Part shown: piece by piece, positions 9,381-49,737 of the stretch
Layout of the letters: every line of letters begins with the position of its first letter
Numbering within the stretch: position 1 is the first letter of the stretch
Source: an uncultured archaeon
GTDB taxonomy: Archaea; Nanobdellota; Nanobdellia; Pacearchaeales; GW2011-AR1
Length of the DNA stretch: 64,000 bases
Direction of reading: 5' to 3'
NCBI GenBank assembly: GCA_902386025.1
Contig: CABMHR010000001.1
Location: forward strand, 177,108-241,107
Position numbers and translations under genes: made by a program
Notes under the pieces: model-generated
The model's database searches: none
What the model was told of the DNA's origin: nothing
Seen by the model: only the letters and a program-made list of their open reading frames with translations

Positions 9381-9510
9381 ATTAAATAGTATGCAGGGAA
9401 ATATATAAATTTTCTTGCTTCCTCATTCCCTCGTTATTTTCAATAAAAAACGGCATTCCAAATCTATATTTTGCAAAATACAAAACCTTATAAACCATAG
9501 TAACTCCGAA

Positions 9511-11118
9511 ATGATTACACAAATGACAAACAAATCATTTACATTTGCGATTTTAAGCATCTTTGCAATGCTGACTCTAATGAGTTTTGCAAGTGCAGCA
9601 ACATTAACAAATCAAAATCCAACTACTTTTCTAACAACAAGCGGGTCTCACACTCTTACTATTGATGTTACTGGGACTGCTTCAGAAGTTGTTACCTTAT
9701 CTTTGCCTGATATAACTCAGGATGGGAAGACAATTGACTTCACTGTTGCACCTTCTGTAACTATTGTAGCAACAGGGGTTGCTCAATCAATAACAATTAG
9801 CTATACTGTTCCTACTGACTTCGTATTCAATTACGGAAAAACTTACTCTACAATTTTAACTGCTACAGCAGCTTCAGGAAATACAAGCCAAACTTTTTCT
9901 TTCCCTGTTACTAATCCTACAAAATACACAGACAACGGAGATTTAAGTATAACAATTGATGACTTGTCTGTTAAAAATGGATTTGGAAAAGATGATGATT
10001 GGTTCCCTCTTGATGATGTTAATGCAAAAATAGTTGTTGAAAATAGCGGAACAGACAAGATCAAGAATATAGTTGTAGAATGGGGATTATATGATCAGAA
10101 TACAGGAAAATTTGTTATGAAAGAAAAGGAAAGCGATTTCAACTTAAATGACGGGGATGACAAGACATTAAACATTCCTTTCAAACTTGATGAAGTGAAC
10201 AAATTTGACAATAGTGATACTTATGTGTTCTACGCTTGGGCTACAGGAGAAGACGAAGCTCACAGCGATGATAAAACTTCAACTTATGATTCAGCTTCTA
10301 TTAATATGATAAATGATGAAAGCGATTTTGTTGTTCTTGGCAATATTCAGATTTCAGATTCTGTCTCATGCGGAGATGATGTTCATATCACAGCAGATGT
10401 CTGGAATATTGGAACAGATGACCAGGACAAGGTTTATGTAATCATATCTGAATCTACTTTGGGAATAAATCAAAAGGTTTCTATTGGGGATATAAGTTCT
10501 TTTGACAATGGAATCTTGGATGCAACCATAAAAATTCCCCAGGATGCTGAATCAGAAAAAAATTATGTCCTAAAACTCTCTGTTTATGGAGAAGACGGGC
10601 TTTATCAGAATGATTATGACGATTCAAAATCTCAATCTGATGTTTGGTTTAAAGTTTCAGGAACTTGTTCTGCTCCTGTAACAATTGCAGCAAGCTTACA
10701 GTCAGAAGCAAGAACAGGGCAGGAATTGAAAGTAAAAACAACTATTACAAACACAGATTCAAAAGCAGGCAATTTCACTCTTGATTTGAGCGGATACTCT
10801 TCTTGGGCAGAATTAGTAAATGTTAATAAAACTTCATTCACGGTAAATGCAGGAGCATCCCAAGATGTTATAATTACATTCAAAGTAAACGATGATGCTT
10901 CTGGAAGCCAGAATTTCAATATAGGATTGCAGGAAGGAACAAAGACATTTTCACAGCAGGTTTCTGTTCCATTGACACAGTCATCAGGATTTTCATTGTC
11001 AGGAATTACAGGCTTGTTTACAAGTGGGAATAAGCTGATTTGGGCAATCGGTGCATTGAATGCGATTTTGATATTAGTCATCATTATTGTAGCAGTAAAG
11101 GTTGTAAGAAAGAAATAA
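9511..11118 (+). CDS. Secreted cell-surface protein with C-terminal TM anchor
   Basis: Signal peptide MITQMTNKSFTFAILSIFAMLTLMSFASA. The body is Thr/Ser/Asp-rich with a C-terminal TM + RKK. Start chosen at the internal Met. Confidence 0.55.
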   Translation: MITQMTNKSFTFAILSIFAMLTLMSFASAATLTNQNPTTFLTTSGSHTLTIDVTGTASEVVTLSLPDITQDGKTIDFTVAPSVTIVATGVAQSITISYTVPTDFVFNYGKTYSTILTATAASGNTSQTFSFPVTNPTKYTDNGDLSITIDDLSVKNGFGKDDDWFPLDDVNAKIVVENSGTDKIKNIVVEWGLYDQNTGKFVMKEKESDFNLNDGDDKTLNIPFKLDEVNKFDNSDTYVFYAWATGEDEAHSDDKTSTYDSASINMINDESDFVVLGNIQISDSVSCGDDVHITADVWNIGTDDQDKVYVIISESTLGINQKVSIGDISSFDNGILDATIKIPQDAESEKNYVLKLSVYGEDGLYQNDYDDSKSQSDVWFKVSGTCSAPVTIAASLQSEARTGQELKVKTTITNTDSKAGNFTLDLSGYSSWAELVNVNKTSFTVNAGASQDVIITFKVNDDASGSQNFNIGLQEGTKTFSQQVSVPLTQSSGFSLSGITGLFTSGNKLIWAIGALNAILILVIIIVAVKVVRKK

Positions 11119-12632: not shown

Positions 12633-13202
12633 TTGTTAGTTATGAAGAAAGAGGGAAATTCTGCACTGAATATTTTTTTGAGATATGCAATTATGATTTT
12701 ATTCGGAATTTTAAATGCAGGTTTTTTTTATATTATCTTCACACCTCTTACAATTTATCCTGTTTATTTTTTGCTGAAGATTTTTTTTGGAGCATCTCTT
12801 ATTGGAAATGTCCTATTTGTTCATAATTTTCCTGTTGAAATAATAGGCGCGTGCGTCGCAGGTTCTGCTTATCTTCTGCTCTTGGTTTTAAATCTGTCAA
12901 CTCCCAAGATAAAATTGTCAAGGAGAATCGGGATTTTCTTTTTTTCATTTTCTCTTTTGCTGGCGGTTAATGTGTTGAGAATTTTTACACTTTCAGGAAT
13001 ATTGGTTTCAGGAAGTTCATTATTTGACTTGGCGCATAAAATATTCTGGTATGCAGGAAGTATTTTGTTTGTTGCAGGGATATGGTTCTTGAGTGTTAAG
13101 TTATTTAAGCTGAAAGAAATTCCATTCTATTCTGATATAAAATATCTTTGGAATAAGCTAAGAAAAGATATGAAGAAATCCAAGCATTCCAAGAAGCATT
13201 AA
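12633..13202 (+). CDS. Exosortase/archaeosortase-domain membrane protein (small archaeosortase-like)
   Basis: Polytopic. Has a conserved Cys in IIGACVAGSAY and Arg in AVNVLRIF, like the archaeosortase catalytic Cys/Arg. Confidence 0.45.
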   Translation: MLVMKKEGNSALNIFLRYAIMILFGILNAGFFYIIFTPLTIYPVYFLLKIFFGASLIGNVLFVHNFPVEIIGACVAGSAYLLLLVLNLSTPKIKLSRRIGIFFFSFSLLLAVNVLRIFTLSGILVSGSSLFDLAHKIFWYAGSILFVAGIWFLSVKLFKLKEIPFYSDIKYLWNKLRKDMKKSKHSKKH

Positions 13203-14764: not shown

Positions 14765-17242
14765 TTATGCAACTACAAGTGTAGCAGTTGTAGCAGAAGT
14801 ACCTTTGTATTTCTTTCCAACTGTTGTATCTACAGTTTGTGTTCTTAAGTAAGTAGCAGCATTTACAGTATCAGCAGCTTCATAACCCGCAACGACTAAA
14901 GCAACTTTCCCTGTTGAGTAAGTGCTTGCTAAACTTTGGATCAAGAATTGTCCTGAGCCAATGTCTGTCTTTGTTGTGAAATCGCTTCCACAAGTGCTTC
15001 CTAATAAATTAGCAGCAACAGAGTTAATACAGCTTCCACCAACAACAATCAAGTTCTTTGAACTTACAGAGCTAACTTCAGAGTCTTTTACAAGAACATC
15101 TCCAAGTTGTGTTGCTCCTCCTGTTGTTGAGCTTACAGATATGTCTCCACTATTAATGTATACTAATGGATTTGCAATGCTCTTTGGTATTGAAGCTTCT
15201 ATGCTTACTGGTGAATCTGCAGGGTCTGTGCTGATTATATGTTGTCCGTAAAGTCCAATATACTCTTGTACATTTGAATCATCTGGACTAGTTAACCATT
15301 TGCTTGTTCCTGCTTGAGTGACTTTTGCATCTCCAGAACTGTTTGTAACATTTACATAGAATACTGCTCCTTGGTTAGGAAGAGTGAACTGATCGTCATC
15401 TCTTGTTGTATCATCTATTGTTACATTTAAGCTCCAAGGGTCTGATACACTTGAGGTACCCACCGTATTGGTAGGATCAATTATCTCATTAACAAAGGTA
15501 GCATTTTTATCTGTTATATTAATCAACGTATTGTAATACGTTCTAATATAATTAGATACGCTTGCATTGCTTAAATCAGTAGTTGATTCTTTACTTCCAT
15601 AGTCCCCGCTACTGAATGCAATTAAACAATCATTAGCGCTTGAACAGCTTGAAGCATTTATGAAAGTAAAGTCTGCTCCAGCTTCTTGCAATGTACCATG
15701 TCCCATAGATCCAGCTGCTGTAGTCATAACTACATCTCTATCTACTTGGTTTGAACCAGGGTTTAGAGTAAAGTGGAATACGGGATTAGTATCTGTAGTT
15801 TTATCTGCTCCTTTATATTGAATCACAACTGTTTTAGCATTACTTGTAGGAACCTTAGGATTTCCAGTGTTTAGAATGACATAATCATTCTTTGAAACAT
15901 TTTGGAAAGTTGAAAGCAATACTAAGCTTTTGTCTGCATCAGCTCCACCATAGACTCCTGAAGTATTTGTGTATAATACAGGCAATTCAACTTTATCCCC
16001 ATTGTAGTTTACAAAATCAAGGGTATATTTTTTGTCATTTCCAGAAACTTTAAAGCTAATATTTTCATAACTTTGAGCTTTTAATCCTGCAAATGATATA
16101 TCCCAATTCTGTCCAACTAATACTTCTGGTTTATCCAAATCTGAAGCCTGGCTTAATTTCTTTCCAACTGGAACATATAAGTCATCTTCTGCAGTCATGT
16201 TAATTGCAATTTGGCTGATGGATACATCAGACACATTGCTTGCAGTTATATCAACATGTGCATCGCTTACTGTTTCTCCATTTACAACCATTGCAGAGTT
16301 ATTGTTCAATTCAAGTTTATCTGCTCCTATGTAGAATACAGCATTATTATCTGCTCCAGCAATACCCTGATAAGTTATATCAGTTACAGCTAGATATTTT
16401 CCATTGGCTAATTTTTCAATATCGCCTTTGTCCATCTTAGCTGTTGTTTCAGTTCCACTTGCTGAAGTAATAGTGAACTTTGCTTCAGTAGCACTTGTAA
16501 CTTCTGCACTAACAGTATATTCTCCTATAGTTAATGGTGTTGCACGGGCAGTTCCTGTTAAAGCACCGCTCATTAAAGTCAAATCTACACCTTTTGAAGT
16601 CATATAAGCACTTGTTATAGTGTAAGTTTTTCCCAAAAGAGTTATTTGTTTGTCCTCTATGTCTGATAATTTGTTGTCTGCTGTGTCAATATCAGATCCT
16701 AAAGCAGTACCAAAACTCATAACATACTTTGCAATCTGTTGTCCGCTTGGTATCTTAAAAAACAATCCTAAAGCATCTGTATCTGGGTCTGAAGTGTAGA
16801 TAACTCTACCTGGGTCGGATAAATCAGTTGTTTCAAAATAGAGATACTGCTTGTAAGTAGAATCTCCTTTCTCGTTAGAGAGAGAACCATCTGCTAAAAT
16901 AGCTAAGTCGCCAGAACTAATATATGAAGTAACTTCTGCTATAGATTCATTAATCTCCAATATATCAGAACTTGTTCCAACCTGCCAAGCATCTCCGCCA
17001 GTTACAGTAGTGCTTCCGCTTGTTCCAGTCATATATGATTGCAAGTTTGACTGAATGTTTCCTGCCTGAACTAAATCAAGTGAAGAAACACCAGAACCTG
17101 TACCATAAACAACAGCGACATTTGCAGCTCCTCCAGCAACGAAAGGTGCGGGATAATTTGCAGCTACAGCAGTGCCCATAGTTAATCCTACCATCAATGC
17201 GCTAGCAGCGATTGCCGTTACTTTTTTAAAATTTAATCTCAT
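14765..17242 (-). CDS. S-layer-like major surface protein
   Basis: Sec signal MRLNFKKVTAIAASALMVGLTMGTAVA. 825 aa, Thr/Ser/Gly-rich. There is a strong RBS (GGAGGT) and a long structured 5' leader. Confidence 0.55.
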   Translation of the reverse strand: MRLNFKKVTAIAASALMVGLTMGTAVAANYPAPFVAGGAANVAVVYGTGSGVSSLDLVQAGNIQSNLQSYMTGTSGSTTVTGGDAWQVGTSSDILEINESIAEVTSYISSGDLAILADGSLSNEKGDSTYKQYLYFETTDLSDPGRVIYTSDPDTDALGLFFKIPSGQQIAKYVMSFGTALGSDIDTADNKLSDIEDKQITLLGKTYTITSAYMTSKGVDLTLMSGALTGTARATPLTIGEYTVSAEVTSATEAKFTITSASGTETTAKMDKGDIEKLANGKYLAVTDITYQGIAGADNNAVFYIGADKLELNNNSAMVVNGETVSDAHVDITASNVSDVSISQIAINMTAEDDLYVPVGKKLSQASDLDKPEVLVGQNWDISFAGLKAQSYENISFKVSGNDKKYTLDFVNYNGDKVELPVLYTNTSGVYGGADADKSLVLLSTFQNVSKNDYVILNTGNPKVPTSNAKTVVIQYKGADKTTDTNPVFHFTLNPGSNQVDRDVVMTTAAGSMGHGTLQEAGADFTFINASSCSSANDCLIAFSSGDYGSKESTTDLSNASVSNYIRTYYNTLINITDKNATFVNEIIDPTNTVGTSSVSDPWSLNVTIDDTTRDDDQFTLPNQGAVFYVNVTNSSGDAKVTQAGTSKWLTSPDDSNVQEYIGLYGQHIISTDPADSPVSIEASIPKSIANPLVYINSGDISVSSTTGGATQLGDVLVKDSEVSSVSSKNLIVVGGSCINSVAANLLGSTCGSDFTTKTDIGSGQFLIQSLASTYSTGKVALVVAGYEAADTVNAATYLRTQTVDTTVGKKYKGTSATTATLVVA

Positions 17243-17630: not shown

Positions 17631-17975
17631 ATGGTAACAAGGGAAATAACAATAAAAGAAGCAAAGGGGGCATTTTCTATATTTAAGAAGCCCTCTAAGG
17701 GGAAGGAAGAATATGATTTCTCTGGGATATCTGCATTGAGGCAGGTGCTGGGCAATGAAAAAGCGAGGATATTAAGCGTCATAAAAAATGACAAGCCGAG
17801 TTCTTTATATGATTTGTCCAAGAAGCTTGGCAGGAATTTCAAGTCTGTTTACGCTGATTCTAAACTGCTTGAAAGATTTGGTTTTATAGAACTGGCTGAA
17901 GAGAAAGTAAATAACCGGACAAGATGCAAGCCAAAGATAGTAACAGATACCATAACAATACAAATTAAGATTTAA
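17631..17975 (+). CDS. Predicted winged-helix transcriptional regulator
   Basis: wHTH-like segment SLYDLSKKLGRNFKSVYADSKLLERFGFIEL. Confidence 0.4.
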   Translation: MVTREITIKEAKGAFSIFKKPSKGKEEYDFSGISALRQVLGNEKARILSVIKNDKPSSLYDLSKKLGRNFKSVYADSKLLERFGFIELAEEKVNNRTRCKPKIVTDTITIQIKI

Positions 17976-18451
17976 CTGTAAAGATTAAGGGAAACCTGAT
18001 AGTCTGTTCCTCCTCTTGTAAAGTCCTGAAATGCCCCCTGATAACTTGCTGTTTTATTCCCGCCTTGGAATTTTATCTTTTCCTGCTCATCTGCTGTAAT
18101 TTTAAATTCATATCCTTTTACTGCACTCTGGGTTCCAACATTCCATCCTTTTGTAACCATATTGCCTAAATTAGATTTTAATACATCACAGCTGTCTCTT
18201 CCATCAATGCATATATCTCCATTCTCGCAGGAAATTATCAATTCCTGCACAGGAAGAAATCCTATCTGGCTGTCGCAGTCTGTTGTATACTGCAGGCTTG
18301 ATTCTATAAAACTTTCAATTTCAGAATCTTGAACAATAGTCTGATCAGGAGTTTTTATCAAAAAACTAAGCAGGATTAGAAGGATTACCCCCACAATTAC
18401 TACAATCACTGCAAATCCAACCATCTCCTCTTGCGCTAATTTATCTCTCAT
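17972..18451 (-). CDS. Type IV pilin-like protein (class III signal peptide)
   Basis: MRDKLA|QEEMVGFAVIVVIVGVILLILL. A basic leader and +1 Gln are followed by a hydrophobic segment. Confidence 0.5.
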   Translation of the reverse strand: MRDKLAQEEMVGFAVIVVIVGVILLILLSFLIKTPDQTIVQDSEIESFIESSLQYTTDCDSQIGFLPVQELIISCENGDICIDGRDSCDVLKSNLGNMVTKGWNVGTQSAVKGYEFKITADEQEKIKFQGGNKTASYQGAFQDFTRGGTDYQVSLNLYS

Positions 18452-19074
18452 TGTGTTTTGTCCTCAGAACTAACCATTAATCTGGCAAGTTCGCATTTAT
18501 CATAAGCTCCTGTCCCGCCTGATTTCTTCCTGCACAGCGAGATAAAACTTGAACTGGAAGGCAGTGTTTTTACATTCTTGTCAAGGATTTTAAGAACCCC
18601 GCAATTTGGATAATTTTCCATATTGCATTCTATATTTCCAGAATCAGGATAAACTTTCCTTATTTCTATTTTTGCAACACCCCAGAAACCAGAAAATTTA
18701 TCTTTATTTTCTGAAAGAATTATAACTTTATCAAAATCAACGCAGTCTGTTCTGCTGCTCCCAAATGCATTTTCGCAGGATAACTCTGGAGAATTTGCAA
18801 GTTTTGATACAAGAAGAGTAGCTTCTTTTTCTGCAAGATTTGTAGCTGTTTTCTGAAGATTCTGCATTATTATGGATAGAAAAAACAATCCGACAAGAAC
18901 AAACAGGAAAGTAACTGCTATAATCATAAAAACCATCTGCTGTATTTTCATCTGAGCCGAGCGATTTCGCGGTATTAAGGCACGTGTCATGCAAGCGAAG
19001 TCGGGAGTAGAGCGATTTCGCGGTATTAAGGCACGTGTCATGCAAGCGAAGTCGGGAGTTTTTTTGTTTACCAT
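18448..19074 (-). CDS. Type IV pilin-like protein with two tandem copies of a 17-aa leader insert
   Basis: MVNKK[TPDFACMTRALIPRNRS]x2 AQM + hydrophobic. Confidence 0.55.
   Translation of the reverse strand: MVNKKTPDFACMTRALIPRNRSTPDFACMTRALIPRNRSAQMKIQQMVFMIIAVTFLFVLVGLFFLSIIMQNLQKTATNLAEKEATLLVSKLANSPELSCENAFGSSRTDCVDFDKVIILSENKDKFSGFWGVAKIEIRKVYPDSGNIECNMENYPNCGVLKILDKNVKTLPSSSSFISLCRKKSGGTGAYDKCELARLMVSSEDKTQ
18958..19059 (-). repeat. Two tandem copies of a 51-nt GC-rich in-frame element in a prepilin leader
   Basis: Sense strand is actcccgacttcgcttgcatgacacgtgccttaataccgcgaaatcgctc(t/g), twice. Confidence 0.85.
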
Positions 19075-20006
19075 AGCAGGCAGTCTCCGGCATTATTTAT
19101 TTCAGTTATAGCATCTGCTTCTGTCTTGACAATTCCCAATTCAGAAGAGCTTGTTAAATCTCCTGCAAGCTGGCTTAATTCATCCAAACTTCCTCCTGCA
19201 TTGTTGTCACATCCTTCTTTCTGGATAAGCATCCCTTTGTCTTTATACAGCAGAGAAATTTCTTCTAATCTAAGCATTAATCTTTTTATCTGGCATTCAT
19301 ATGCATCTTTGTCTGAAAATATTGCAGCATACATCAATGCGCTTGTCCCTTCTCCTGTTTCAGCAAAATACATAATTTTTCCGTCTTTCTCAACAGATTC
19401 AGAAGACAAGTCAACATTTATGTCGCAGTTTTCATTGTTGAAGCATATTCTTATTCCATTCTGGGCGCAGTTGTCTATAAGCAGATTGCTCTGGTTTAAA
19501 TTGAATATTTCCTGGCTTATCTCTTCAGGAGCGTCGACAAAGCAGTAGCTTTTTTTTGAAGAAGTCATGTAAATCAAGTCTGCAATTTTGAATGGGAAAT
19601 CAAAGGGTTTTGAGAAAATGTAAAATGTTTTTCCTTCTGTTTCATTGTCTGAGAAAATATATTTGTTTTCAAAAAAAATGTTCACGTCGGTTTTTACCCA
19701 TTTGTTGAAGCTTTTTTGCTCCAGTTGTATTCCCTGCTTCCCAAAATTCCCCGCACTGTCGCAGATGTTATGAATTCTTGTCTCTGTTGGGATTGTTATG
19801 GAAGTTGTCTGCGCTGTTTCGTAGCTTGTTTCCAGAGGATTTAACAAAGCATCTATTTCCTTTCCTGTCTTAGCGCTTACTGTTTCCTGCCCAGAATTAA
19901 TTAATTTTGAACTGAAATAAATAGCAAGAAAAATTATGACAATTCCCGCAATAAGAGCAAACAGCCAGCCAAAAGAAATTTCAAGCGCCCCTTTTTTTTC
20001 TTTCAT
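19068..20006 (-). CDS. Type IV pilin-like protein
   Basis: MKEKKGALEISFGWLFALIAGIVIIFLAIY. Confidence 0.55.
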   Translation of the reverse strand: MKEKKGALEISFGWLFALIAGIVIIFLAIYFSSKLINSGQETVSAKTGKEIDALLNPLETSYETAQTTSITIPTETRIHNICDSAGNFGKQGIQLEQKSFNKWVKTDVNIFFENKYIFSDNETEGKTFYIFSKPFDFPFKIADLIYMTSSKKSYCFVDAPEEISQEIFNLNQSNLLIDNCAQNGIRICFNNENCDINVDLSSESVEKDGKIMYFAETGEGTSALMYAAIFSDKDAYECQIKRLMLRLEEISLLYKDKGMLIQKEGCDNNAGGSLDELSQLAGDLTSSSELGIVKTEADAITEINNAGDCLLW

Positions 20007-20110
20007 AAATAAAAATACCGAATATAACTTATAAATTTTCCTAATATTTTTTTCTTTCTTATTCTCTTGCCCCTTTCTATCATTGTAGGTTCTTTTTTAA
20101 AAGAACCTCA

Positions 20111-20593
20111 TTATCTTGTAATAGTTACTAATGTCTCCCCGTAATTTTTTACAATATTCATGCTTATTTTTCCCTTGACATTCTGGATGCAGAATGGATT
20201 TTCATCTTTGATTGTTTTTGCAATATCAATATTTTCAATTTTCTTTCCTGCAATTATGCTTTTGGAGGTGAATTTCATATTTTCAAACTCATCATTCTGA
20301 AAACATACAGAACTAATCTTTGTGGGCAGAGAATATTTCACGCTTTGGCTTCCTTCGCTGCTCTTCCACATTTTGTTTACATCTTCCTGAAAATTTTGCG
20401 AGAAGGTTTGTATCTGCACATCCTGCTGCATATTCAAAAATTTTGTTATAGCATAAAATCCAAAGACAAGAAAAACAATTATAAGAATAATGGAAAAAAT
20501 CATTCCGAATGATAAATTCATCTGTGCCGAGCGATTTCGCGGAATTAAGGCACGTGTTATGCAAGCGGGTTCGCGAGTTTTCTTATCCATCAT
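20111..20593 (-). CDS. Type IV pilin-like protein with leader insert
   Basis: MMDKK[TREPACITRALIPRNRS]AQMNLSFGMIFSIILIIVF. Confidence 0.55.
   Translation of the reverse strand: MMDKKTREPACITRALIPRNRSAQMNLSFGMIFSIILIIVFLVFGFYAITKFLNMQQDVQIQTFSQNFQEDVNKMWKSSEGSQSVKYSLPTKISSVCFQNDEFENMKFTSKSIIAGKKIENIDIAKTIKDENPFCIQNVKGKISMNIVKNYGETLVTITR
20528..20578 (-). repeat. 51-nt GC-rich in-frame element copy
   Basis: Sense strand is actcgcgaacccgcttgcataacacgtgccttaattccgcgaaatcgctcg. Confidence 0.85.
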
Positions 20594-20732
20594 TAAAAAT
20601 GCCGAATATAACTTATAAATTTATCGAGACAATCCTTTATTACTATTTTTTATTATCAACATCTTTTGAAGACAATCAATCATACCTGCTCGTAACCTCT
20701 CGCAGATTTTTGTTAAATTTTATACACAGAAG

Positions 20733-21083
20733 TTAAATCCAATAACATCTCGTGGCAACCATAAAAATCTCATGCTGTTTAAATCTTCTTTTTAATGTCT
20801 CTTTATATTCTTTTAATTCCTTTATCTTTGCAACATTGCAGATAGTCATCTTATCTTCTGAATCAATTAAGATAGTATAAACAACTGTTTTATCATTATA
20901 TCTCTTTTTGTTATTTGGATTTATCCAAGAACCAATTATAGGGGTGTTGGTTGTATTTATCCCACCTGCCATTTTTAATAATTCTTCATAAGTATCAAAG
21001 AAAGATTCCTCTGGAATTTTCCCTCCCCCGTCTTCAAGGTTAAAATTAATAGGTAATTGTATATCTACTTTAAAATGAGTCAT
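20733..21083 (-). CDS. Hypothetical protein
   Basis: 116-aa ORF. Confidence 0.3.
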   Translation of the reverse strand: MTHFKVDIQLPINFNLEDGGGKIPEESFFDTYEELLKMAGGINTTNTPIIGSWINPNNKKRYNDKTVVYTILIDSEDKMTICNVAKIKELKEYKETLKRRFKQHEIFMVATRCYWI

Positions 21084-21313
21084 TATTCTTCTTGATTTAT
21101 CGGTAATTCAGTAAAAGAAATATTATTATCACTCAAAATTCTAAGAAATCTTTTTTCTACAATAAACTCGTCCTGTTTGTCTGAGTAAGTATTTCCATTA
21201 GTCATTAACAGATAAAATCCCTTTATTTTATTCTCTCTTGAATGATTAATTTTTATTCTTACATAAATATGTTCATTTTCATTGTTAACACAAGAACAAA
21301 TTTCATCAGGCAT
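21083..21313 (-). CDS. Hypothetical protein
   Basis: 76-aa ORF. Confidence 0.25.
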   Translation of the reverse strand: MPDEICSCVNNENEHIYVRIKINHSRENKIKGFYLLMTNGNTYSDKQDEFIVEKRFLRILSDNNISFTELPINQEE

Positions 21314-21383
21314 ATTTTTTAAACCTCTTTTTTAATATAAAGATATGTATAATAAACTATATATTCTTTTTGGATTTTTCTAA

Positions 21384-24300
21384 TTAGTAAGAACTGACAG
21401 GCCTTGCAATCAAGCTGCATTCAGCAGGAGATGGCTGGTTTCCAAATTCATCCTTGCACTTTATGTAGAATATGCTGTTAATATTCCAGTCTGTTGAATG
21501 AGCTAAATTATCTGCGGTTGTCATCTTTAGCCCGTCTTTAAAGTCATATCCGCAGTTGGTTGTGTCATAAACGCAGTCTGCTTTCTCGTTTGTTGTAATT
21601 TTCAGCTGATTGACGTCGTTGTAAACTCTTGTAACTATGGGGGCAGTTGTATCTGTCTTGACTGTAAATGTTGTTGCTTGTGTCTGGCAGTTTAATCCGC
21701 TGTCACAGCATTTTATTGAATAAGTATAAGTTCCTGAATCCAGCCATAAATCCTGTGAATGCTGATAAGAATCTGTGTTGGCAAATTTGGCGTAAATTGT
21801 TTCTGATGATTCTTTGAAGAAGCAGGCTGCTTCTCCGTTTTGATATCCTGCAGAAGTTACTGCTTCTAACTTAACGTGGACGCTTTGAGTTGAATCTTTT
21901 ATTGTTGTTCCGTCTAAAGGAGCAATGCTGTTAATTACTAAATCTCTTGTTCCGATTAGCTTGTAAACATAAGATTGTGTCATTGCTGTTCTTTCTGATT
22001 CTTTGTCTGTTCCCTGCTTTGAAGGATAGCTCTTGCATCTAAAGTAAAAGTTATTTTCAACTTCATCTCTTATTCCTGTTAATGTAGTTGTGCATTTGTA
22101 GAGCATATTTGCGCTTATTTCTGTGCTTTCCTGTGCGCAAGTCATTGTATTAGTCATTGCATCATAACTCTCGTCGTTGTGGCTCCATTTGCAGTCTGAT
22201 GGCTTGTCTGTATAAACATCAACTGATTTTGAAGTAACTCCTTTTTGTGTTGGCGCTCCGTTGGATGGGTTTGTCAGTTCAACAGAAGGGGCAGTTGTAT
22301 CTGGCTGGCTCTGGACGCAGTATTTGAATACAAATGTTCCGGCAGTTGAAACTCCATTCTTGCTCTGGCATCTTACATAAGTTTCATAATTTCCTCCATT
22401 TTCTATTTGAACTCCCTCGTCGCTTAACTCGCTTGTTCCTGGATGGAATGAAAGGATGCTGTGATTTTCTATGAAATGTCCTTGGCTGATTAATCCGGGA
22501 TTTGTCATACTGTCAAAAGTGCTTTTTCTGACAGTGTCAATTCTGCATTGTCCTGGCTTGTCTAAATTTATTCCGTAAGTTATTTTTTGGAATGGAAGTG
22601 CGCATCCGTCGCTGGTTTCTGTGTTGATTATTTTCACTCCCTTGTCAGATGCAGATGTTGTTGCAGGCTCGTATTTGAATCCTTCCTGCAATGCTCCTTC
22701 CCATGCAGACATTGTAGGAGGTGTGACATCATTTCTATTATTGAAATAACATTTCTCTTCGCTTGTTCCTTCATTCAGCAATTCACAATTCTGCCCCAAG
22801 CTCTCGCATTTGTATTTTGTGCAGGGCAATTGTCCTGTATTGCATTTCTCGCAGTTTGCTCCGCCTGTTGCAGGCTGCCACGAGTTGCAGGTATATTGAA
22901 CTGCTACAACTTCTCTTTCTCTGTGAAATATTACAAAGAGGATAGCAGAAATTCCAAGTCCAATCAATCCTCCTACAAATCCTGTAAATAAGAAAGTAGT
23001 ATCTTTTCCAATAACACCCAATCCAAATAATAATGTTTCAATTGCAGAACCTGCTGCATATCCTATTCCTAATACAATTCCTGCATCACTCCATGCCTGA
23101 GGATCTGGATTTCCAGGGATAGTGCTTATTCCCCATAATCCTGCCCAAAGTCCAACAGCAATAACAGAATTTCCAACTATCGCCCATATTCCTCCGTTGT
23201 TAAATATATTGCTTAAAAAATTTGGTGCTTCATCTTGAGTGTATCCCTTATATCCTGTTCCAGGAGATGCACTATTTGGATTTGTATTCCCTTGTTGTTG
23301 TGAAGTTAAATCAGTTACAGCTGTTTTCGCTTTTCCATACACATCTAAATAACCCCCTGCTAAACTAGCCATATCAACAGCTGATGGGGTGCTGGATGGT
23401 TCTTTTGATGTTTCCTTTTCCCCTATCAAGTCTAATTTATCACAACAAACACCATTTCCATTTAACTCTATAAATCCTGTTCTAACATTACAAGAAGTTC
23501 TAGTAGTCCCATATTTTGCATTTAAATCAACACACTTATTTTTATCTACGCAACTTGCTCCAGAATTGCATTTTTTATTTGCCTCTTCATTATTGTTTGT
23601 TCCAGTTCCAGTGGTTGCTGTTCTTGGATTTATTGTTAAAGTAAAAGATTTTGTATCTGTTCCTTTAATTTTTTGGCTTCCCCCCCCTGCAGAACAATAT
23701 GCTTTTGCAGTTACAGAGAAACTTGTAGAGCCTGCATTTTTTACTCCCCCCAATGAATAAAATTCCCCACTAAATTGATTATAGTCTATATTATGGCCTG
23801 CACTTCCAATAGTGCTTGCTGCGTTTGAAACTTCCCAATGAACTTCGCACCCGCTTAAACTATATATAGACTTTATATTTGTGGTTAATGTAAAAAGAGT
23901 ATCTTTTTGTCCAACAGTTACAGAAGGTGAAGCAGAATTTATAGCAAATGATGTTGATGAAGTTGTTGATGCTTCTGGGTTAATTATTGTTAAAGCAAAA
24001 GTTTTTGGATTTGATACATATAATGGATTATTCCCTTCACTTATTTGTGTTTGAACTTTAAAAGTATATGTTCCTGCTGTTGTTGGTGTCCCAGAAAGAA
24101 TCCCCGTTTCTGTATTAAAAGATAATCCTGGGATTATTAATTGAAAATTCTCTGGAGTCATTATTTTCCATTCATAATAAGCAAGAGAGGGTTTATACTT
24201 TGTTCCATAATTTACACTAAGTTGAAGAGAATATCCTGATTTACCTGCTTCCCATATTAATTGTGAATCTGTTACATCGTTTATGTCTATGGATGAGGCA

Positions 24301-24440
24301 GTAGCACTCACGATTTTGAATTCATTCCCAAGAAGATAAGCGAAAGCAGCGATGCTGACAACTAAGATAAAGATTTCAAATATTGACATTCCTTTTTCTG
24401 CTTTCCTCTTCAGCGAACTTTTGTTTTTTATTTTATCCAT
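21384..24440 (-). CDS. Giant pilin-like surface protein: N-terminal signal/TM, He_PIG-like Ig domain, central multi-TM segment, Cys-rich C-terminal domains
   Basis: KAEKG|MSIFEIFILVVSIAAF. LSGTPTTAGTYTFKV is a He_PIG-like motif. Residues ~420-500 are strongly hydrophobic. There are many Cys residues. Confidence 0.55.
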   Translation of the reverse strand: MDKIKNKSSLKRKAEKGMSIFEIFILVVSIAAFAYLLGNEFKIVSATASSIDINDVTDSQLIWEAGKSGYSLQLSVNYGTKYKPSLAYYEWKIMTPENFQLIIPGLSFNTETGILSGTPTTAGTYTFKVQTQISEGNNPLYVSNPKTFALTIINPEASTTSSTSFAINSASPSVTVGQKDTLFTLTTNIKSIYSLSGCEVHWEVSNAASTIGSAGHNIDYNQFSGEFYSLGGVKNAGSTSFSVTAKAYCSAGGGSQKIKGTDTKSFTLTINPRTATTGTGTNNNEEANKKCNSGASCVDKNKCVDLNAKYGTTRTSCNVRTGFIELNGNGVCCDKLDLIGEKETSKEPSSTPSAVDMASLAGGYLDVYGKAKTAVTDLTSQQQGNTNPNSASPGTGYKGYTQDEAPNFLSNIFNNGGIWAIVGNSVIAVGLWAGLWGISTIPGNPDPQAWSDAGIVLGIGYAAGSAIETLLFGLGVIGKDTTFLFTGFVGGLIGLGISAILFVIFHREREVVAVQYTCNSWQPATGGANCEKCNTGQLPCTKYKCESLGQNCELLNEGTSEEKCYFNNRNDVTPPTMSAWEGALQEGFKYEPATTSASDKGVKIINTETSDGCALPFQKITYGINLDKPGQCRIDTVRKSTFDSMTNPGLISQGHFIENHSILSFHPGTSELSDEGVQIENGGNYETYVRCQSKNGVSTAGTFVFKYCVQSQPDTTAPSVELTNPSNGAPTQKGVTSKSVDVYTDKPSDCKWSHNDESYDAMTNTMTCAQESTEISANMLYKCTTTLTGIRDEVENNFYFRCKSYPSKQGTDKESERTAMTQSYVYKLIGTRDLVINSIAPLDGTTIKDSTQSVHVKLEAVTSAGYQNGEAACFFKESSETIYAKFANTDSYQHSQDLWLDSGTYTYSIKCCDSGLNCQTQATTFTVKTDTTAPIVTRVYNDVNQLKITTNEKADCVYDTTNCGYDFKDGLKMTTADNLAHSTDWNINSIFYIKCKDEFGNQPSPAECSLIARPVSSY

Positions 24441-24452
24441 TTTCCTGTATTT

Positions 24453-26060
24453 TTATGCAGTTCCTGTGCTCAAGTTTGTTTTTGTTATGCTTTCCTGAAC
24501 ATTCCCCTTTGCTCCTGCATAATTTGTTTTGTCTCCGCAGTCTCCTAATTTAGTGCAGATGCTGTTCATCTTGCTTGCCCAGGTTTTTCCTCCGTCGTAA
24601 TTTCCATTTGCGTCATTTACGCAAGAGCAGTTATTTCCATTCCACCATAAATTATTGAGATCAGGCCCTTCGCATACATAGTTGGAGTTTATTATATCCT
24701 TCTTCATCTGAACATAGCATAAAGTATTCGCCAGCTGACAGGAATCTATTGCATCTGTTGTTCCGTCTCTTGCAAATCCTGGCTGGATTTTTGGAACGCA
24801 CAATCCTGCAGAGCTTGAATTGACAAGCTTTCCTTCTTCAACCGAATAAGAATATCCGCTGCTTGCTATCCAAGAGCAGTCTCTTACATTGACATCATTG
24901 CAGTCTTCTTCTTTTGTTTGAAGTATGCAGTCCTGCCAGACATTTGCCCTGCAGTTTGCAGACATAAAAGGGCTGTCTGTTGTTCCTATGTCTGATTCAG
25001 AGCAGACTTTCTGCCTTGTGGAATCGCATTCTTCCATTGTAACTTCTCCATTATAGCACATCATTCTGAAAGAAGTTGAACCAGGAGAATTTTCATTCCC
25101 TGCCTTCGCATCTGTTGCACACCAAGTCTCTCCGTGTTTTGGCTTTCCTGTTCCGCTGTAAATTCCATTGTAGCTGCTGCAGTCAAGGCTTCTGCATAAA
25201 TTATTTCCCACACTCACAGATTCTCCTGCTTTTTTTGTCTGACACATGCTTCCAGAATAATAATCGCAGTCTCCGCAGGTTGCAGAATTTTTATTTCCGG
25301 GATTGCTTGCAGCAGTGCAGTCTGGCTTTTGTATTGTTGTCCAATAAGGAACACTGTCTTTTTTGCTCGCATCATAAATATTTGCAAGATTTCCGCAGGT
25401 ATCTGTAAAATAAACATCATCTCCGCTGCATATTGTGTTTGCACTCTTTGCGCATATTGTTCCAAGTTCAGGCGCACTGCATAAAAATCCCTCGTGGAAA
25501 GATACATCTGACAATGTTTTTGCATTATTCTGGCAGTTTTCTTTTGTTGTCATCTCGCAGGTTTTTGCAGAAGTTTTTGCATCAGTATAAACACACGCCC
25601 CCTTTGCATTTGGGTTCGCGCTTGCGAGGCAGGTTAATTCATCATTTATATTCGCATTCCAGTTAATTGTTAATCCGTATGTTGAAGCCATCCTGTTGCA
25701 CGCAATCTGTGTTACAAATGCAACCTGATCTCCGAGAAGACAGCATCCCAAACTGCACTGGGATAAATCGCTTTCTGATTTATCGCTCCATATTCCTCCG
25801 TTGTTTGTGCAGACGCTTTCTGTTGAAGCAATGCAGGTTCCTTCCTTCTGGTTGATGCAGGTTCCTGTTTTGCAGTATGAAGTTGATTCGCATCCGGCAG
25901 AAATTGCATTATACGACGGATTGCATTCTGATTTTGAACTTTCTTCCTGGCACCATGCTCCAGAATTTGTTTTTTCACAGCAGTAATTTGCAGAACTTGC
26001 AATTCCAATTAAAAAAATTCCTAAAATTAAAAACGAATAAATTATTTTTCCTCTTTTCAT
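24453..26060 (-). CDS. Cys-rich secreted protein
   Basis: Signal MKRGKIIYSFLILGIFLIGIASSA, then a large number of Cys residues. Start trimmed to the internal Met. Confidence 0.5.
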   Translation of the reverse strand: MKRGKIIYSFLILGIFLIGIASSANYCCEKTNSGAWCQEESSKSECNPSYNAISAGCESTSYCKTGTCINQKEGTCIASTESVCTNNGGIWSDKSESDLSQCSLGCCLLGDQVAFVTQIACNRMASTYGLTINWNANINDELTCLASANPNAKGACVYTDAKTSAKTCEMTTKENCQNNAKTLSDVSFHEGFLCSAPELGTICAKSANTICSGDDVYFTDTCGNLANIYDASKKDSVPYWTTIQKPDCTAASNPGNKNSATCGDCDYYSGSMCQTKKAGESVSVGNNLCRSLDCSSYNGIYSGTGKPKHGETWCATDAKAGNENSPGSTSFRMMCYNGEVTMEECDSTRQKVCSESDIGTTDSPFMSANCRANVWQDCILQTKEEDCNDVNVRDCSWIASSGYSYSVEEGKLVNSSSAGLCVPKIQPGFARDGTTDAIDSCQLANTLCYVQMKKDIINSNYVCEGPDLNNLWWNGNNCSCVNDANGNYDGGKTWASKMNSICTKLGDCGDKTNYAGAKGNVQESITKTNLSTGTA

Positions 26061-26061
26061 T

Positions 26062-26850
26062 TTATGATGTTGCATATCCCGCAGCCCATATCTGGCTCTT
26101 TGATGCAAATTCAAATTTATTTCCTGTATTTCTGTCTGTTATTGAATATATTTTCTCTCCGCTGTCTCTCAAATCTTTTTCAACTTTCAAATCGTGGTAA
26201 TACGCCATATAAGTTGTTACTTCTGCATCTCCGTAGGCAACTTCCCACTGCAGTATGCTATTAGCTATTGCAACTAATTCATAAAGATTATTGTTCAGAA
26301 TTACAACAAATGAATCATATTTCTGCGTGTCTCCTTTTGTCAATGTCAGTGAGTAATTGAATGTTGAGACAATTCTCTTCGGAAGAAGTTCAACTGATGT
26401 AGCTCCTGATTTCAAATCAACGCTGTATCCCTGACTTTCATAGCTGGATTTCATCGACGAGAAGCACGAATTAACTTCAGAAGAAATTGCATTTTTTATT
26501 TCTGATTCAATGTGCTGCTTCAGCATTGGCTGCTGGACAACGCAGAAAACTTTGTTTGTTGCCTTGAAATACTGGTTTGTGTAGCATAAAAATTCAACTT
26601 TATTGTTGTCTTTAAGAATAAAATTCTCTGGATTTAAACTTCCCCCCTGCAGCGATATCTTGGTTACTGCGTCGGTGATTCCTTTTTCAATGCAGGTTTG
26701 AATGTAAGACTGCGGAGTTTTTGCCTGTGCTCCGAAAGTTGTTTTAATCTGCGGATAAAAACTATAAATCAAAAAACCTGCAACAACAATTATTATTCCA
26801 ATAATAATAAATATAGTAATCTGCCCCTTTCTGTTCCACCTCTTGTTCAT
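26062..26850 (-). CDS. Archaeal type IV pilin (class III signal peptide)
   Basis: MNKRWNRKG|QITIFIIIGIIIVVAGFLIY, a canonical KG|Q site. Confidence 0.65.
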   Translation of the reverse strand: MNKRWNRKGQITIFIIIGIIIVVAGFLIYSFYPQIKTTFGAQAKTPQSYIQTCIEKGITDAVTKISLQGGSLNPENFILKDNNKVEFLCYTNQYFKATNKVFCVVQQPMLKQHIESEIKNAISSEVNSCFSSMKSSYESQGYSVDLKSGATSVELLPKRIVSTFNYSLTLTKGDTQKYDSFVVILNNNLYELVAIANSILQWEVAYGDAEVTTYMAYYHDLKVEKDLRDSGEKIYSITDRNTGNKFEFASKSQIWAAGYATS

Positions 26851-29871: not shown

Positions 29872-31665
29872 ATGAACAAAAGAGTGTGTTTTTTATTTTT
29901 GCTTGGTTTGGTTTTATGTTCATTATTTGCTGCTGCAGCCAATGATACAACTACAGACATACAGACAAAAGCTTATGCCTGTCTGGGAAATAAAGTAAAC
30001 GGACATTGTTCTTCTCTTTCAACAGAAGAAAAAATATTCTCTCTTTTATCAATAGGGCAGTGCAAATCAGAACTTCTTTCAGATTCATTTTCAACTCAAT
30101 GCTGGCCTGAACAGAAATGCACAGTAAAATCAACAGCACAGGCAATTCTTGCATTAAGCAAGGCAGGAATTGACACATCAAAAGCAGAAACTTGGCTGTT
30201 GTCGCAGTCAATAAACTCAAAAGATATTGACTGGTTCCTGCAGGTTGAGGCAAATACTGCTGCTGGAGAAGAAACATCCTGTTCAGTTGCTTATTCGGAT
30301 AATTCAATTCATCATTTTTCTATAAATGAAGACAAGACATTAAGCGGAGATGCAGGAAATTGCTTAAGTGTTTATCAGGATTATTGGTTCAAGGTATCTT
30401 CTTCGTGCTACAACGAGCAGTTTAAAGTTTCCTGTTCTGATTCTTTTCAAACTTCTGTATTGTATCAAAAAACAGATGCAGGCACAAATGATTTTTATGT
30501 TTCAGACAAGACAGCTTCTGCATCAGGCGAGGGGACAACAACAGAAAATATAAATTTATCCTGCTTCAAGACAGGCTCTGTCTGTGATTATGAAGGAACA
30601 TTATGGGCAGCAATTGTTTTAAAATATCTGAAATATGATGTATCTTCTTACATTCCATATTTAATTGCAATGTCAGGAAACAATCCCCAATATATTCCTG
30701 AATCTTTCCTTTACACACTGACTGATAATTTCAGGACAGATTTGCTGACAAGACAGCAGGAGAATCAATGGTGGGCTGCATCAGGGGACAAATTTTATGA
30801 TACTGCTGTTGCACTTCTTCCTTTCCAAAATGAAGATATAACCGAAAAAGCAAATTCAAAAGCTTGGCTTAGCGGCGTTCAGGGAGCAGATGGATGCTGG
30901 CAGGACAATATAAGGAATACTGCATTTATTCTTTATTCTCTTTGGACAAAAAATATTAATGTTACAGTAACCCAGAAAAATTGCGAAAGTTCAAATCATT
31001 TTTGTATGTCAAGCGCTTCGTGTTCAGGCATAAGTGGAACAGAATTAACAGATTACAGCCAGTCTTGTTTGGGAACAAATATTTGCTGTGATAGGCAGAA
31101 AGTATTAGCAAGCTGTTCTGCTCAAGGAGGAAAATTATGCTCTTCAGGAGAGCAGTGTCTTGGAGGAAGTGATATAGATGCATCTGATTCTTTAAACAGC
31201 ATATGCTGTGTAAGCGGGACTTGCGGAGTTCAGCAGCAGACAGCGTGCAGTTCTTCAGGAGGAATATGCAGAGATTCCTGCTTCAGCACAGAGCAATTTT
31301 CTTCATCTTCCTGCTCTTCATCTCAAGTTTGCTGTGTTTCTTCATCAGCATCGCAGAAATCTTCAGGAAGCTTGGTTATTATTCTGCTCGTAATATTAAT
31401 AGTTCTTGCTTTGGCTGGAATAATCTTCAGGAAGAAATTAAGAGAACTTTTCTTGAAATTCAAGTTTGGCGGGGGAAAAGGAAAAGCTCCAACAACTCCA
31501 AGCCCAAGATTCCCTCCAACATCATCTTCAAGAGTTTATCCGGGATTAATTCCAAGAACAATAATTCCGCAGAGAGCTCCTGCTACAAGAGCGCCTGTGA
31601 GAAAACCTGCAGGAAGGGATGAAGTGTCAGATGTTCTCAAAAAATTAAAAGATATTGGGAAATAA
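29872..31665 (+). CDS. Cys-rich secreted protein with C-terminal TM and Pro/Arg-rich cytoplasmic tail
   Basis: Signal peptide, many Cys, TM LVIILLVILIVLALAGIIF. Confidence 0.5.
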   Translation: MNKRVCFLFLLGLVLCSLFAAAANDTTTDIQTKAYACLGNKVNGHCSSLSTEEKIFSLLSIGQCKSELLSDSFSTQCWPEQKCTVKSTAQAILALSKAGIDTSKAETWLLSQSINSKDIDWFLQVEANTAAGEETSCSVAYSDNSIHHFSINEDKTLSGDAGNCLSVYQDYWFKVSSSCYNEQFKVSCSDSFQTSVLYQKTDAGTNDFYVSDKTASASGEGTTTENINLSCFKTGSVCDYEGTLWAAIVLKYLKYDVSSYIPYLIAMSGNNPQYIPESFLYTLTDNFRTDLLTRQQENQWWAASGDKFYDTAVALLPFQNEDITEKANSKAWLSGVQGADGCWQDNIRNTAFILYSLWTKNINVTVTQKNCESSNHFCMSSASCSGISGTELTDYSQSCLGTNICCDRQKVLASCSAQGGKLCSSGEQCLGGSDIDASDSLNSICCVSGTCGVQQQTACSSSGGICRDSCFSTEQFSSSSCSSSQVCCVSSSASQKSSGSLVIILLVILIVLALAGIIFRKKLRELFLKFKFGGGKGKAPTTPSPRFPPTSSSRVYPGLIPRTIIPQRAPATRAPVRKPAGRDEVSDVLKKLKDIGK

Positions 31666-49494: not shown

Positions 49495-49737
49495 CTACCT
49501 TTTAGCTTTTCTCCACTTTCTTATTATTATCTTAAATCCAATAAGTTTTGAAGTGTAATTAACTCCAAGTTTTTCCAAAAGTTCATCAGAATATTTTTTT
49601 ATTGTTTCTTTTTCGTGCCCTGCACTTTTCAAAACAGAAATTCTTATGCTTTCCCGTGTTTGAAATGCATTCTTTAATGTCTGGATAAAATTTTCTGTTA
49701 TCCCGTTTTTTCCCAACTGCATTTCTGTAAAAGTCAT
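49495..49737 (-). CDS. YhbY/CRM-domain RNA-binding protein
   Basis: QLGKNGITENFIQTLKNAFQTRESIRISVLK. Confidence 0.55.
   Translation of the reverse strand: MTFTEMQLGKNGITENFIQTLKNAFQTRESIRISVLKSAGHEKETIKKYSDELLEKLGVNYTSKLIGFKIIIRKWRKAKR

Follow-up and report, generated by a model that had tools for sequence, protein, structure and literature searches.

Four neighbouring minus-strand genes, g1 to g4, on a stretch of 64,000 nucleotides (nt) of uncultured archaeal DNA (contig CABMHR010000001.1, positions 177,108 to 241,107; hereafter the window) form the 3' half of a conserved seven-gene cell-surface operon of Pacearchaeota which spans positions 17972-26850. Judged by their sequences, six of the seven products, including those of g1-g4, appear to be type IV pilin-like proteins, and the leaders of g4 and g2 contain copies of a 51-nt element, a short dispersed repeat that is probably mobile. 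The window has a GC content of 34% and includes an archaeal RNase P RNA together with the 3' end of a 23S rRNA that is likewise archaeal; the homologues of the studied genes bear the labels Pacearchaeota, Nanoarchaeia or Woesearchaeota. Pacearchaeota and related archaea are tiny-celled and have not been cultivated, and the way in which they make contact with other cells is not understood. The locus constitutes a conserved, lineage-wide surface module of seven genes with a candidate main subunit, accessory subunits and an adhesin, and this module, whose function is deduced from sequence, makes the surface structures of DPANN archaea more testable in cryo-tomograms and proteomes. No description of the gene cluster was found in the literature searched; its pilin-like proteins are new and unannotated, and the pilin-like class itself is known already.

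The seven-gene surface operon

The operon and its flanking genes comprise the following features, in which a bar marks the predicted cut:

17972-18451, minus strand: g1, 159 amino acids (aa), MRDKLA|QEEMVGFAVIVVIVGVILLILL, predicted class III signal peptide site A6|Q7 (MRDKLA|QEEMVGF)
18448-19074, minus strand: g2, 208 aa, ...RNRSA|QMKIQQMVFMIIAVTFLFVLVG, predicted site A40|Q41, leader with two tandem element units
19068-20006, minus strand: g3, 312 aa, MKEKKG|ALEISFGWLFALIAGIVIIF, predicted site G6|A7 (MKEKKG|ALEISFGWLF)
20111-20593, minus strand: g4, open reading frame (ORF) of 160 aa, ...RNRSA|QMNLSFGMIFSIILIIVFLVF; read from 20590, 159 aa with predicted site A22|Q23 and one element unit
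21384-24440, minus strand: large protein, 1018 aa, class III-like start KAEKG|MSIFEIFILVV, He_PIG immunoglobulin (Ig)-like domain (PF05345, E 1.4e-6)
24453-26114, minus strand: cysteine-rich secreted protein, 553 aa, conserved operon member whose orthologues have a Sec-type signal
26062-26850, minus strand: 262-aa protein, NRKG|QITIFIIIGIIIV, first gene of the conserved unit
17631-17975, plus strand: winged helix-turn-helix (wHTH) protein of the HVO_A0114 family (PF25212, E 1.8e-13, 50.5 bits against a cut-off of 27.6)
14765-17242, minus strand: surface (S)-layer protein gene (PF05124), which flanks the unit in four of four genomes

The gene order is common to the window and three other genomes, GCA_040961015.1 (L001), JGI 3300032053 (L002) and ENA ERZ27237587 (L064). 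A PCNA gene is followed by genes for a 255-283-aa protein (KG|Q(V/I)TIF), a cysteine-rich protein of ~530-550 aa and the large protein (722-747 aa in the syntenic orthologues), then by g4, g3, g2 and g1, and the order continues with a convergent HVO_A0114-type wHTH gene, the S-layer gene and genes for proteins of ~190-205 aa and ~240-250 aa. In the window this block runs from 26850 down to 13205, and in each genome the seven genes sit between the PCNA gene and the wHTH and S-layer genes. A first-pass annotation of the window had recognised four co-directional minus-strand genes, each encoding a charged N-terminus and a hydrophobic helix, with a wHTH regulator upstream. All four ORFs are present where it had placed them, but the unit comprises seven syntenic genes and not four, and the wHTH gene lies at the 3' end of the cluster, where it is convergent with g1 (4-nt overlap of the g1 stop) and divergent from the S-layer gene, with which it has an intergenic region in common. 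The same wHTH family occupies the same place in L001, L002 and L064.

The start of g1 overlaps the stop of g2 by 4 nt and the start of g2 overlaps the stop of g3 by 7 nt, and because of these overlaps g3, g2 and g1 are probably translated as a unit. The 1018-aa protein with its Ig-like domain is a candidate adhesin of the same operon. By eye, its hydrophobic segments are clustered at about residues 415-500 between two large cysteine-containing parts, and it may cross the membrane several times. The 553-aa cysteine-rich protein has no Pfam match.

Three short features suggest how g4 and the genes behind it could be transcribed:

20602-20622, minus strand: promoter-like TATA box region 5' of g4; the TTTATAAG box is also found upstream of g4 in L001 and L064
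20018-20038, minus strand: promoter-like box AAATTTATAAGTTATATTCGG 5' of g3, a duplicate of the g4 box (two exact copies against 0.01 expected)
20087-20108, minus strand: inverted repeat AGGTTCTTTT-AA-AAAAGAACCT directly 3' of the g4 stop, read from the DNA

The spacer between g4 and g3 is 104 nt long and holds both this 10-bp inverted repeat and the near-exact second copy of the g4 promoter-like box, the duplicated region forming repeat family D3 (45 nt, 84%). The distance from TTTATAAG to the ATG is equal in the two copies if the g3 ATG is compared with the second ATG of g4, at 20590, which is probably the true g4 start and is where the NCBI protein P0001 also begins. The box-to-ATG spacing leads us to infer that the transcripts are leaderless and that the codons just past the ATG, the repeat included, are translated. 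The inverted repeat may mark a transcript end which separates g4 from g3-g2-g1. At 20733-21313 on the minus strand, between the 1018-aa gene and g4, two small ORFs of 116 and 76 aa, neither with a family match, overlap each other. They are found in the window genome only; L001 has a gene for a major facilitator superfamily (MFS) transporter at this place and L002 has nothing, so that the interval is a variable insertion point within the operon which coincides with the duplicated promoter box.

Predicted processing and assembly of the surface proteins

The products of all four genes start with a short leader of basic character, after which come a small residue, then Q or A, and a hydrophobic helix of 22-24 residues; the short net-positive leader is shared by their homologues. 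A permissive rule, which asks for a net-positive leader, [G/A] plus one of Q/A/L/M/V/S/I and a mean hydropathy of >=2.4 over an 18-residue stretch thereafter, picks nine of 114 ORFs of >=70 aa, two of which look spurious, and six of the seven credible ones lie inside 17972-26850. The pattern of conservation in the four families is more telling (at least 310 homologues for g4, at least 1378 for g3, 58 for g1 and 418 representatives at 50% identity for g2). Throughout these >2000 homologues the conserved block starts right after a small residue preceded by K or R, and the leader in front of it varies from 2 to >50 residues and is free in sequence:

g4 family: M-(K/R-rich, 3-45 aa)-RG|QLNLSFGMIFSIILII, block RG|QLNLSFGMIF
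g3 family: ...KG|ALEISFGWLFAIIAG, block KG|ALEISFGWLF
g1 family: ...K[AG]|QEEMVGFAVIV
g2 family: ...[KR][AGS]|Q[LM]KIQQMAFML, block K[AGS]|QLKIQQMAF

In the g2 family the residues at -2/-1/+1 are KAQ (40), KGQ (19), RGQ (15) or KSQ (13). The window copies deviate at -2, where g1 has L, and g2 and g4 have S with R at -3. Such an abrupt start of conservation after a variable leader would be the signature of processing by a prepilin-type peptidase. EppA substrates in Methanococcus carry KG|Q sites, which the sites of the g1-g4 families resemble. The class III, pilin-like typing of the first-pass annotation is thus strengthened by a conserved boundary behind a variable leader, even though no curated model or solved pilin is matched.

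The AlphaFold2 (AF2) model of g4, made from a deep alignment, has a pLDDT of 86.6 and consists of disordered residues 1-27, a helix of 49 residues (28-76) and seven strands, which gives the predicted protein the 'lollipop' outline of a pilin. The g3 model (pLDDT 85.4) has a helix of transmembrane (TM) length at residues 12-39, which a linker of low confidence joins to a beta domain, and a bundle of helices at the C-terminus. Invariant cysteine pairs or clusters in the mature parts (C96/C134 in g4, C75/C88 in g1, six cysteines in g3) are consistent with an extracellular location. The mature domains, which had been described as unrelated and 130-290 aa long, measure about 137-306 aa, and the alignment of the g4 and g3 family profiles with hhalign (127 columns, probability 96%, E 4.6e-9) indicates that g3 and g4 are distant paralogues. 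The g1 profile aligns with that of g4 over the N-terminus only (87%), in register at the predicted site, and weakly with that of g3 (10%). One g4 homologue carries the JGI label UPF0333.

The interpretation which we hold with moderate confidence is that the locus specifies a type IV filament-like structure of several subunits on the cell surface; these subunits, whose genes lie next to that of the S-layer protein, would be processed at [KR][GA]|[QA] and assembled by machinery encoded elsewhere, with g4 as main subunit, g3-g2-g1 and the 262-aa protein as accessory subunits and the Ig-domain and cysteine-rich proteins in distal positions. The sequences suggest how cleavage, assembly and function could be connected. 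The N-terminal hydrophobic helix would enter the membrane and the basic leader would stay in the cytoplasm, where a prepilin-type (class III) peptidase encoded elsewhere would cut at the [KR][GA]|[QA] site. A secretion ATPase and a platform protein, likewise encoded elsewhere, would then join the proteins into a short filament or pseudopilus of several subunits which crosses the S-layer or lies at it. The likeliest main subunit would be g4, on account of its small size, its high conservation, a promoter of its own and the hairpin past its stop; g3-g2-g1 would be accessory subunits analogous to minor pilins, and the 1018-aa Ig-domain protein and the cysteine-rich protein would be likely distal or adhesive parts. 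Host attachment by the products of the locus would be plausible for this lineage.

Several observations weigh against this interpretation and would be better accounted for if the proteins were uncleaved signal-anchor membrane proteins of an apparatus for S-layer anchoring or biogenesis rather than type IV filament (TFF) subunits, an explanation which is unlikely but deserves to be taken seriously. The unit always adjoins the S-layer gene, and its syntenic block is free of peptidase, ATPase and platform genes in each of the four genomes. No pilin or class III model of Pfam or NCBIfam, PF07790, PF04021 and TIGR02537 included, matches g1-g4, and at E up to 1 none matches 187 of their homologues (91 of the g4 family and 96 of the g3 family). 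The strict FlaFind-type motif, which we take to be [KRDE][GA][ALIFQMVED][ILMVTAS]x3, fails for g1-g4 owing to polar residues at +2/+3 or S or L at -2; the 262-aa protein (26062-26850) is the only one which passes. Foldseek searches of the PDB give no match at E <= 0.1 (best 0.77 for g4 and 0.12 for g3, TM-scores <=0.3), and the g4, g3 and g1 family profiles find noise only, and no pilin, among PDB sequences. Structure prediction of the mature domains, one of the checks proposed in the first pass, yields a pilin outline for g4, but no PDB relative for either protein and in g3 a helix which is of TM length only and, with its flexible, low-confidence linker, fits a membrane anchor equally well. 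A plain anchor, however, leaves unexplained why four families have an invariant small residue followed by Q or A exactly where conservation starts, behind a leader of free length. The predicted g4 helix of 49 residues is far beyond a TM span, the leader repeat described below also precedes proteins that pass TIGR02537, and relatives encode TFF ATPase and platform loci together with sister class III proteins.

The last of these points concerns the assembly machinery. The first-pass annotation had noted that the window lacks an assembly ATPase and a platform gene, and this is borne out: no T2SSE, T2SSF or A24 peptidase is found among the 30 window proteins which were profile-scanned, the remainder being judged by eye. 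Because relatives encode T2SSE and T2SSF elsewhere, the absence of machinery genes from the window is no evidence against a pilus-type system. The relative L040 encodes a pilin, T2SSE, two T2SSF proteins and two class III proteins. The Pacearchaeota metagenome-assembled genome (MAG) RBG_19FT_COMBO_34_9 has a T2SSE gene at a distance of ~1.1 kb from two pilin genes that bear the element (L012), and its g4 and g1 orthologues are on another contig (L025/L027). Two candidates from the window itself were rejected. The HerA/FtsK-like ATPase at 46898-48208 (minus strand), the sole ATPase of that superfamily found in the window, matches PF01935/PF05872 and is no pilus-assembly ATPase, and the multi-TM protein at 57493-58179, considered as a prepilin peptidase, gives no match to Peptidase_A24.

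Among the closest known parallels are the EppA-processed pilins of Methanococcus maripaludis (Epd pili; PF04021, UPF0333; TFF 'system 1'), in which a short basic leader likewise ends in KG and is followed by Q at +1 and then by a hydrophobic helix, and for which several different pilin-like genes are also clustered. The two-platform locus of L040 resembles system 1, and DPANN archaea are reported to have a TFF system 1 with a pair of platform proteins (bioRxiv 10.64898/2026.04.22.720090). Unlike the Epd pilins, the members of the present locus miss PF04021 (E up to 1), have larger mature domains without known relatives and are encoded apart from assembly genes in a fixed position beside the S-layer gene. 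The operon is also reminiscent of bacterial minor-pilin and pseudopilin operons (fimU-pilVWXY1E; GspG-K), which likewise combine four to five small pilin-like genes with a large putative adhesin away from the ATPase and have overlapping stop and start codons, an overlap which suggests a fixed stoichiometry. This is an analogy only, with no relation in sequence or fold, and the archaeal leader has no E5 and has Q or A at +1. The class III signal-peptide substrate-binding proteins of the Sulfolobus bindosome share pilin-type N-termini, unrelated larger C-terminal domains and an assembly system encoded elsewhere, but the present locus has no solute-binding domain and no neighbouring ABC transporter.

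The 51-nt leader element

The element unit of 51 nt has a GC content of 57%, against 34% in the genome, and adds 17 residues per copy; its consensus is ACTCGCGAyyyCGCTyGyWTrwCACkkkCCTTAMTTCCGCGAAATCGCTC(G/T). The earlier observation of an inserted leader element in two genes holds, with one unit in g4 and two in g2, and a 34-nt core occurs in four copies in the window against none in 100 shuffles. In all, the window holds four intact copies and one decayed copy:

20528-20578, minus strand: element in the g4 leader, encodes TREPACITRALIPRNRS, nhmmer E 1.6e-16
18958-19059, minus strand: two tandem units in the g2 leader, each encodes TPDFACMTRALIPRNRS, repeat family D1
55202-55252, minus strand: element in the leader of the gene at 54668-55270, ...RNRSG|QMEMSIGTIV, equal to the g4 copy at 48/51 positions
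54668-55270, minus strand: separate class III-like gene which carries the preceding copy, 200 aa; its L014 and L046 orthologues carry the element too
41852-41902, minus strand: decayed in-frame element in cbf5 (41060-41995), 17 residues, DKPT[TLDPAHSSLASSSQSRS]DCTSFDVV, nhmmer E 0.32

The decayed cbf5 copy equals the intact copies at 30-34/51 positions, and the alignment of the window Cbf5 with that of M. jannaschii (2apo_A) begins at residue 50, just past the insert. The alignments of g2 homologues begin at query residues 36-40, from which it follows that most of them are without the two element units, and the element is absent from most database orthologues of all the g1-g4 families. Its occupancy differs from genome to genome:

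Window: g4, g2
L001: g4, g3 (two copies)
L002: g4, g2 (decayed), g1
L064: 262-aa gene, g1

The 262-aa orthologue of L006, like that of L064, has the element in its leader. Across species-representative genomes and JGI metagenomes the element is confined to MAGs labelled Pacearchaeota, Woesearchaeota or 'Nanoarchaeota' and to similar contigs, and one MAG holds at least 15 units at nine sites. Single core-only matches to bacteria in the genome scan fall in high-GC genomes and were put down to chance. A viral origin was likewise rejected, the sole IMG/VR match (L026) sharing just a 20-nt core on a contig with 41% GC. The literature searched contains no description of the 51-nt repeat.

All DNA fetched contains 44 distinct element sites, 43 of them independent (the g4 orthologue of RBG_19FT_COMBO_34_9 is present twice, as L025 and L027). 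At 30 of the 44 the element is in frame and in sense orientation and stops exactly in front of a G or A codon with a hydrophobic helix behind it; the proteins concerned belong to at least 12 families:

Families with a leader element: g1, g2, g3, g4, the 262-aa protein, the 54668 protein and GLSPVITTVLL-type pilins
Further families with a leader element: GWIEIVEAF, GSHVGMM, GQFFLIS, GQVWIETV and AQTGETISW types

Two of the element carriers pass TIGR02537 (27.1 and 21.3 bits, cut-off 20), the match starting directly after the element. These carriers tie the niche of the element to genuine class III signals and, by association, support the predicted sites of g1-g4. Because all 30 insertions, spread over at least 12 families, end at one and the same boundary, the repeat offers independent, sequence-only support for the position of the cut.

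The other 14 sites lie in a YhbY/CRM-like gene (two positions, two frames) and in intergenic DNA, three of them beside tRNA genes. The inserts in the YhbY/CRM gene (L014 5136-5237, L022 2529-2579, L037 and L055) are read either in frame 0 (…VLKS[ARDPAC…PRNRS]x2AGHDKE) or in frame 2 (…LEKL[NSRPRLHNNDLTSAKSL]GKNYTA), which shows that the element is tolerated in more than one reading frame; the window orthologue at 49495-49737 is without an insert. The non-coding copies beside tRNA genes (L015 7338-7439, L058 2987-3037 and L032 3482-3532) are antisense to them, and in L058 and L032 the flanks contain partial duplications of the tRNA 3' end, as at the integration sites of mobile elements.

Possible origins of the element

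Between genomes the element DNA is 80-88% identical, compared with 67-71% for the adjacent, well-conserved mature coding sequence of g4, and at third codon positions the values are 82-88% and 42-56%, respectively. The encoded residues change non-conservatively (C/R, T/S/P, R/H), and the element is thus conserved at the level of the nucleotide sequence and not of the protein. Its consensus is free of stop codons in the three sense frames. Each unit contains two direct 16-nt motifs, yCGCGA-NNN-CGCTyG, with short dyad symmetry (GCGAAATCGC, CACGTG), the upstream flank is A-rich and the next base is nearly always G.

The best reading of these sequence patterns is that the element is a selfish in-frame repeat, similar to the Rickettsia palindromic elements (RPE), which survives in a disposable leader. 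It would insert at A-rich/G junctions, and copies in coding sequence would survive only where 17, 34 or 51 additional residues are harmless. A K-rich leader followed by a Gly or Ala codon offers exactly such an A-rich/G junction, and in a compact genome whose mRNAs are leaderless, a leader that is cleaved off would be the best possible place to persist. Some observations speak against a selfish repeat. The ends of the element have no terminal inverted repeats or palindromy and show only a weak 4-nt complementarity, its flanks contain no clear target-site duplication, and no partner transposase turned up, although no search was aimed at transposases. Moreover, all 30 leader sites abut the -1 residue exactly, which a pure tolerance filter does not predict and for which a target preference or a function is therefore needed. 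It is conceivable, if unlikely, that the element is specialised for class III leaders in leaderless mRNAs, either by targeting the codon before the cleavage site with its own basic 'PRNRS' end or as a shared regulatory tag. In the former case the PRNRS end supplied by the element may keep processing working; in the latter one factor may control many surface-filament genes at once.

A regulatory role could also be more direct. If the element were a cis-regulatory module of surface-protein genes, it could act as an operator (for example for the adjacent wHTH protein) or as a target of RNA or of an RNA-binding protein, and it would sit in disposable leader codons since the mRNAs have no 5' untranslated region, as the promoter-ATG spacing suggests. 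We regard such a module as unlikely. It would explain why conservation exceeds that of the flanking coding DNA, third positions included, why each unit has two direct 16-nt motifs with dyad symmetry and why the sites are biased towards the 5' ends of class III genes (30/44), always in sense orientation, and some non-coding copies (L024, L025) do lie just upstream of surface-protein genes. Yet most orthologues in every family are without the element, its occupancy shuffles among genes from genome to genome, tandem arrays of two to three units exist, and copies are found within cbf5 and the YhbY-like gene and beside tRNA genes. Nor is there an RNA structure signal. No Rfam family is found in the region, three folded leader regions are no more stable than shuffled sequences (z -0.31, +0.53 and -0.75), and no compensating change accompanies the G-to-C substitution that is frequent in the 5' GCGA. 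A specialised or regulatory element, if real, would represent a previously undescribed placing of nucleic-acid signals or mobile DNA in the discarded part of a protein.

The cbf5 mRNA of Crenarchaeota has an intron of the bulge-helix-bulge (BHB) type, and the presence of a decayed copy in this gene, together with the typical short leader that is restored when the element is removed (MDKK-AQMNLSF), raises the question of whether the element is an archaeal BHB intron which is spliced from the mRNA, the true leaders being short. This is highly improbable: the coding copies, the decayed cbf5 copy included, are exact multiples of 51 nt without stop codons, tandem arrays occur, the would-be pairing flanks are not conserved, no stable fold is found, and no geometry could be drawn in which a 4-bp helix is flanked by two 3-nt bulges, one on each strand.

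A selfish repeat in the leader niche would be a new form of in-frame selfish DNA, a class known from the coding genes of Rickettsia as RPE (PMC10969869). In both cases short multicopy repeats are found in unrelated genes with the host frame kept, are present or absent between orthologues and include decayed and intergenic copies. The present element differs from RPE in its length (51 nt against ~100-150 nt), in being non-palindromic and archaeal, in forming tandem arrays and in having about two thirds of its sites in one niche, the codon just before a class III cleavage site. Should it prove mobile, archaea would have their own equivalent of the in-frame selfish DNA of Rickettsia, one with a remarkably narrow niche. 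The repeat is moreover a warning for annotation, since long, odd 'leaders' in these genomes are repeat insertions and near-identical leader codons in unrelated genes do not imply kinship of the proteins.

Other insertions occur in the same position. A second kind of leader insert is AT-rich and unrelated to the 51-nt element (...KFSLCNFFSKNRRG|, ...NFSLLSRK.G|, ...VLKNxRF...) and is often accompanied by a second copy of the cleavage motif (KKGQLKIQ...KAQLKIQ), an arrangement that resembles a target duplication. A third kind, with the motif TTTCCMTTTAAAAGTGTGSTCACG, precedes g2 in two genomes. Leader inserts are carried by P0017, P0035, P0071, P0102, P0110, P0187, P0209, P0246, P0255, P0284, P0321, P0341, P0368, P0371, P0397 and P0403, and their places in DNA include L064 6001-6100, 6975-7080 and 7562-7640 and L024 ~1605-1650. 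Class III leaders in this lineage seem to gather small insertions of all sorts.

Elsewhere in the window, a pacearchaeosortase is encoded at 12633-13202 on the plus strand (NF033505, 213 bits). Surface proteins near it, for example those at 9415-11118, 29872-31665 and 31791-33062, have a C-terminal TM helix and a basic tail and could be substrates of this enzyme.

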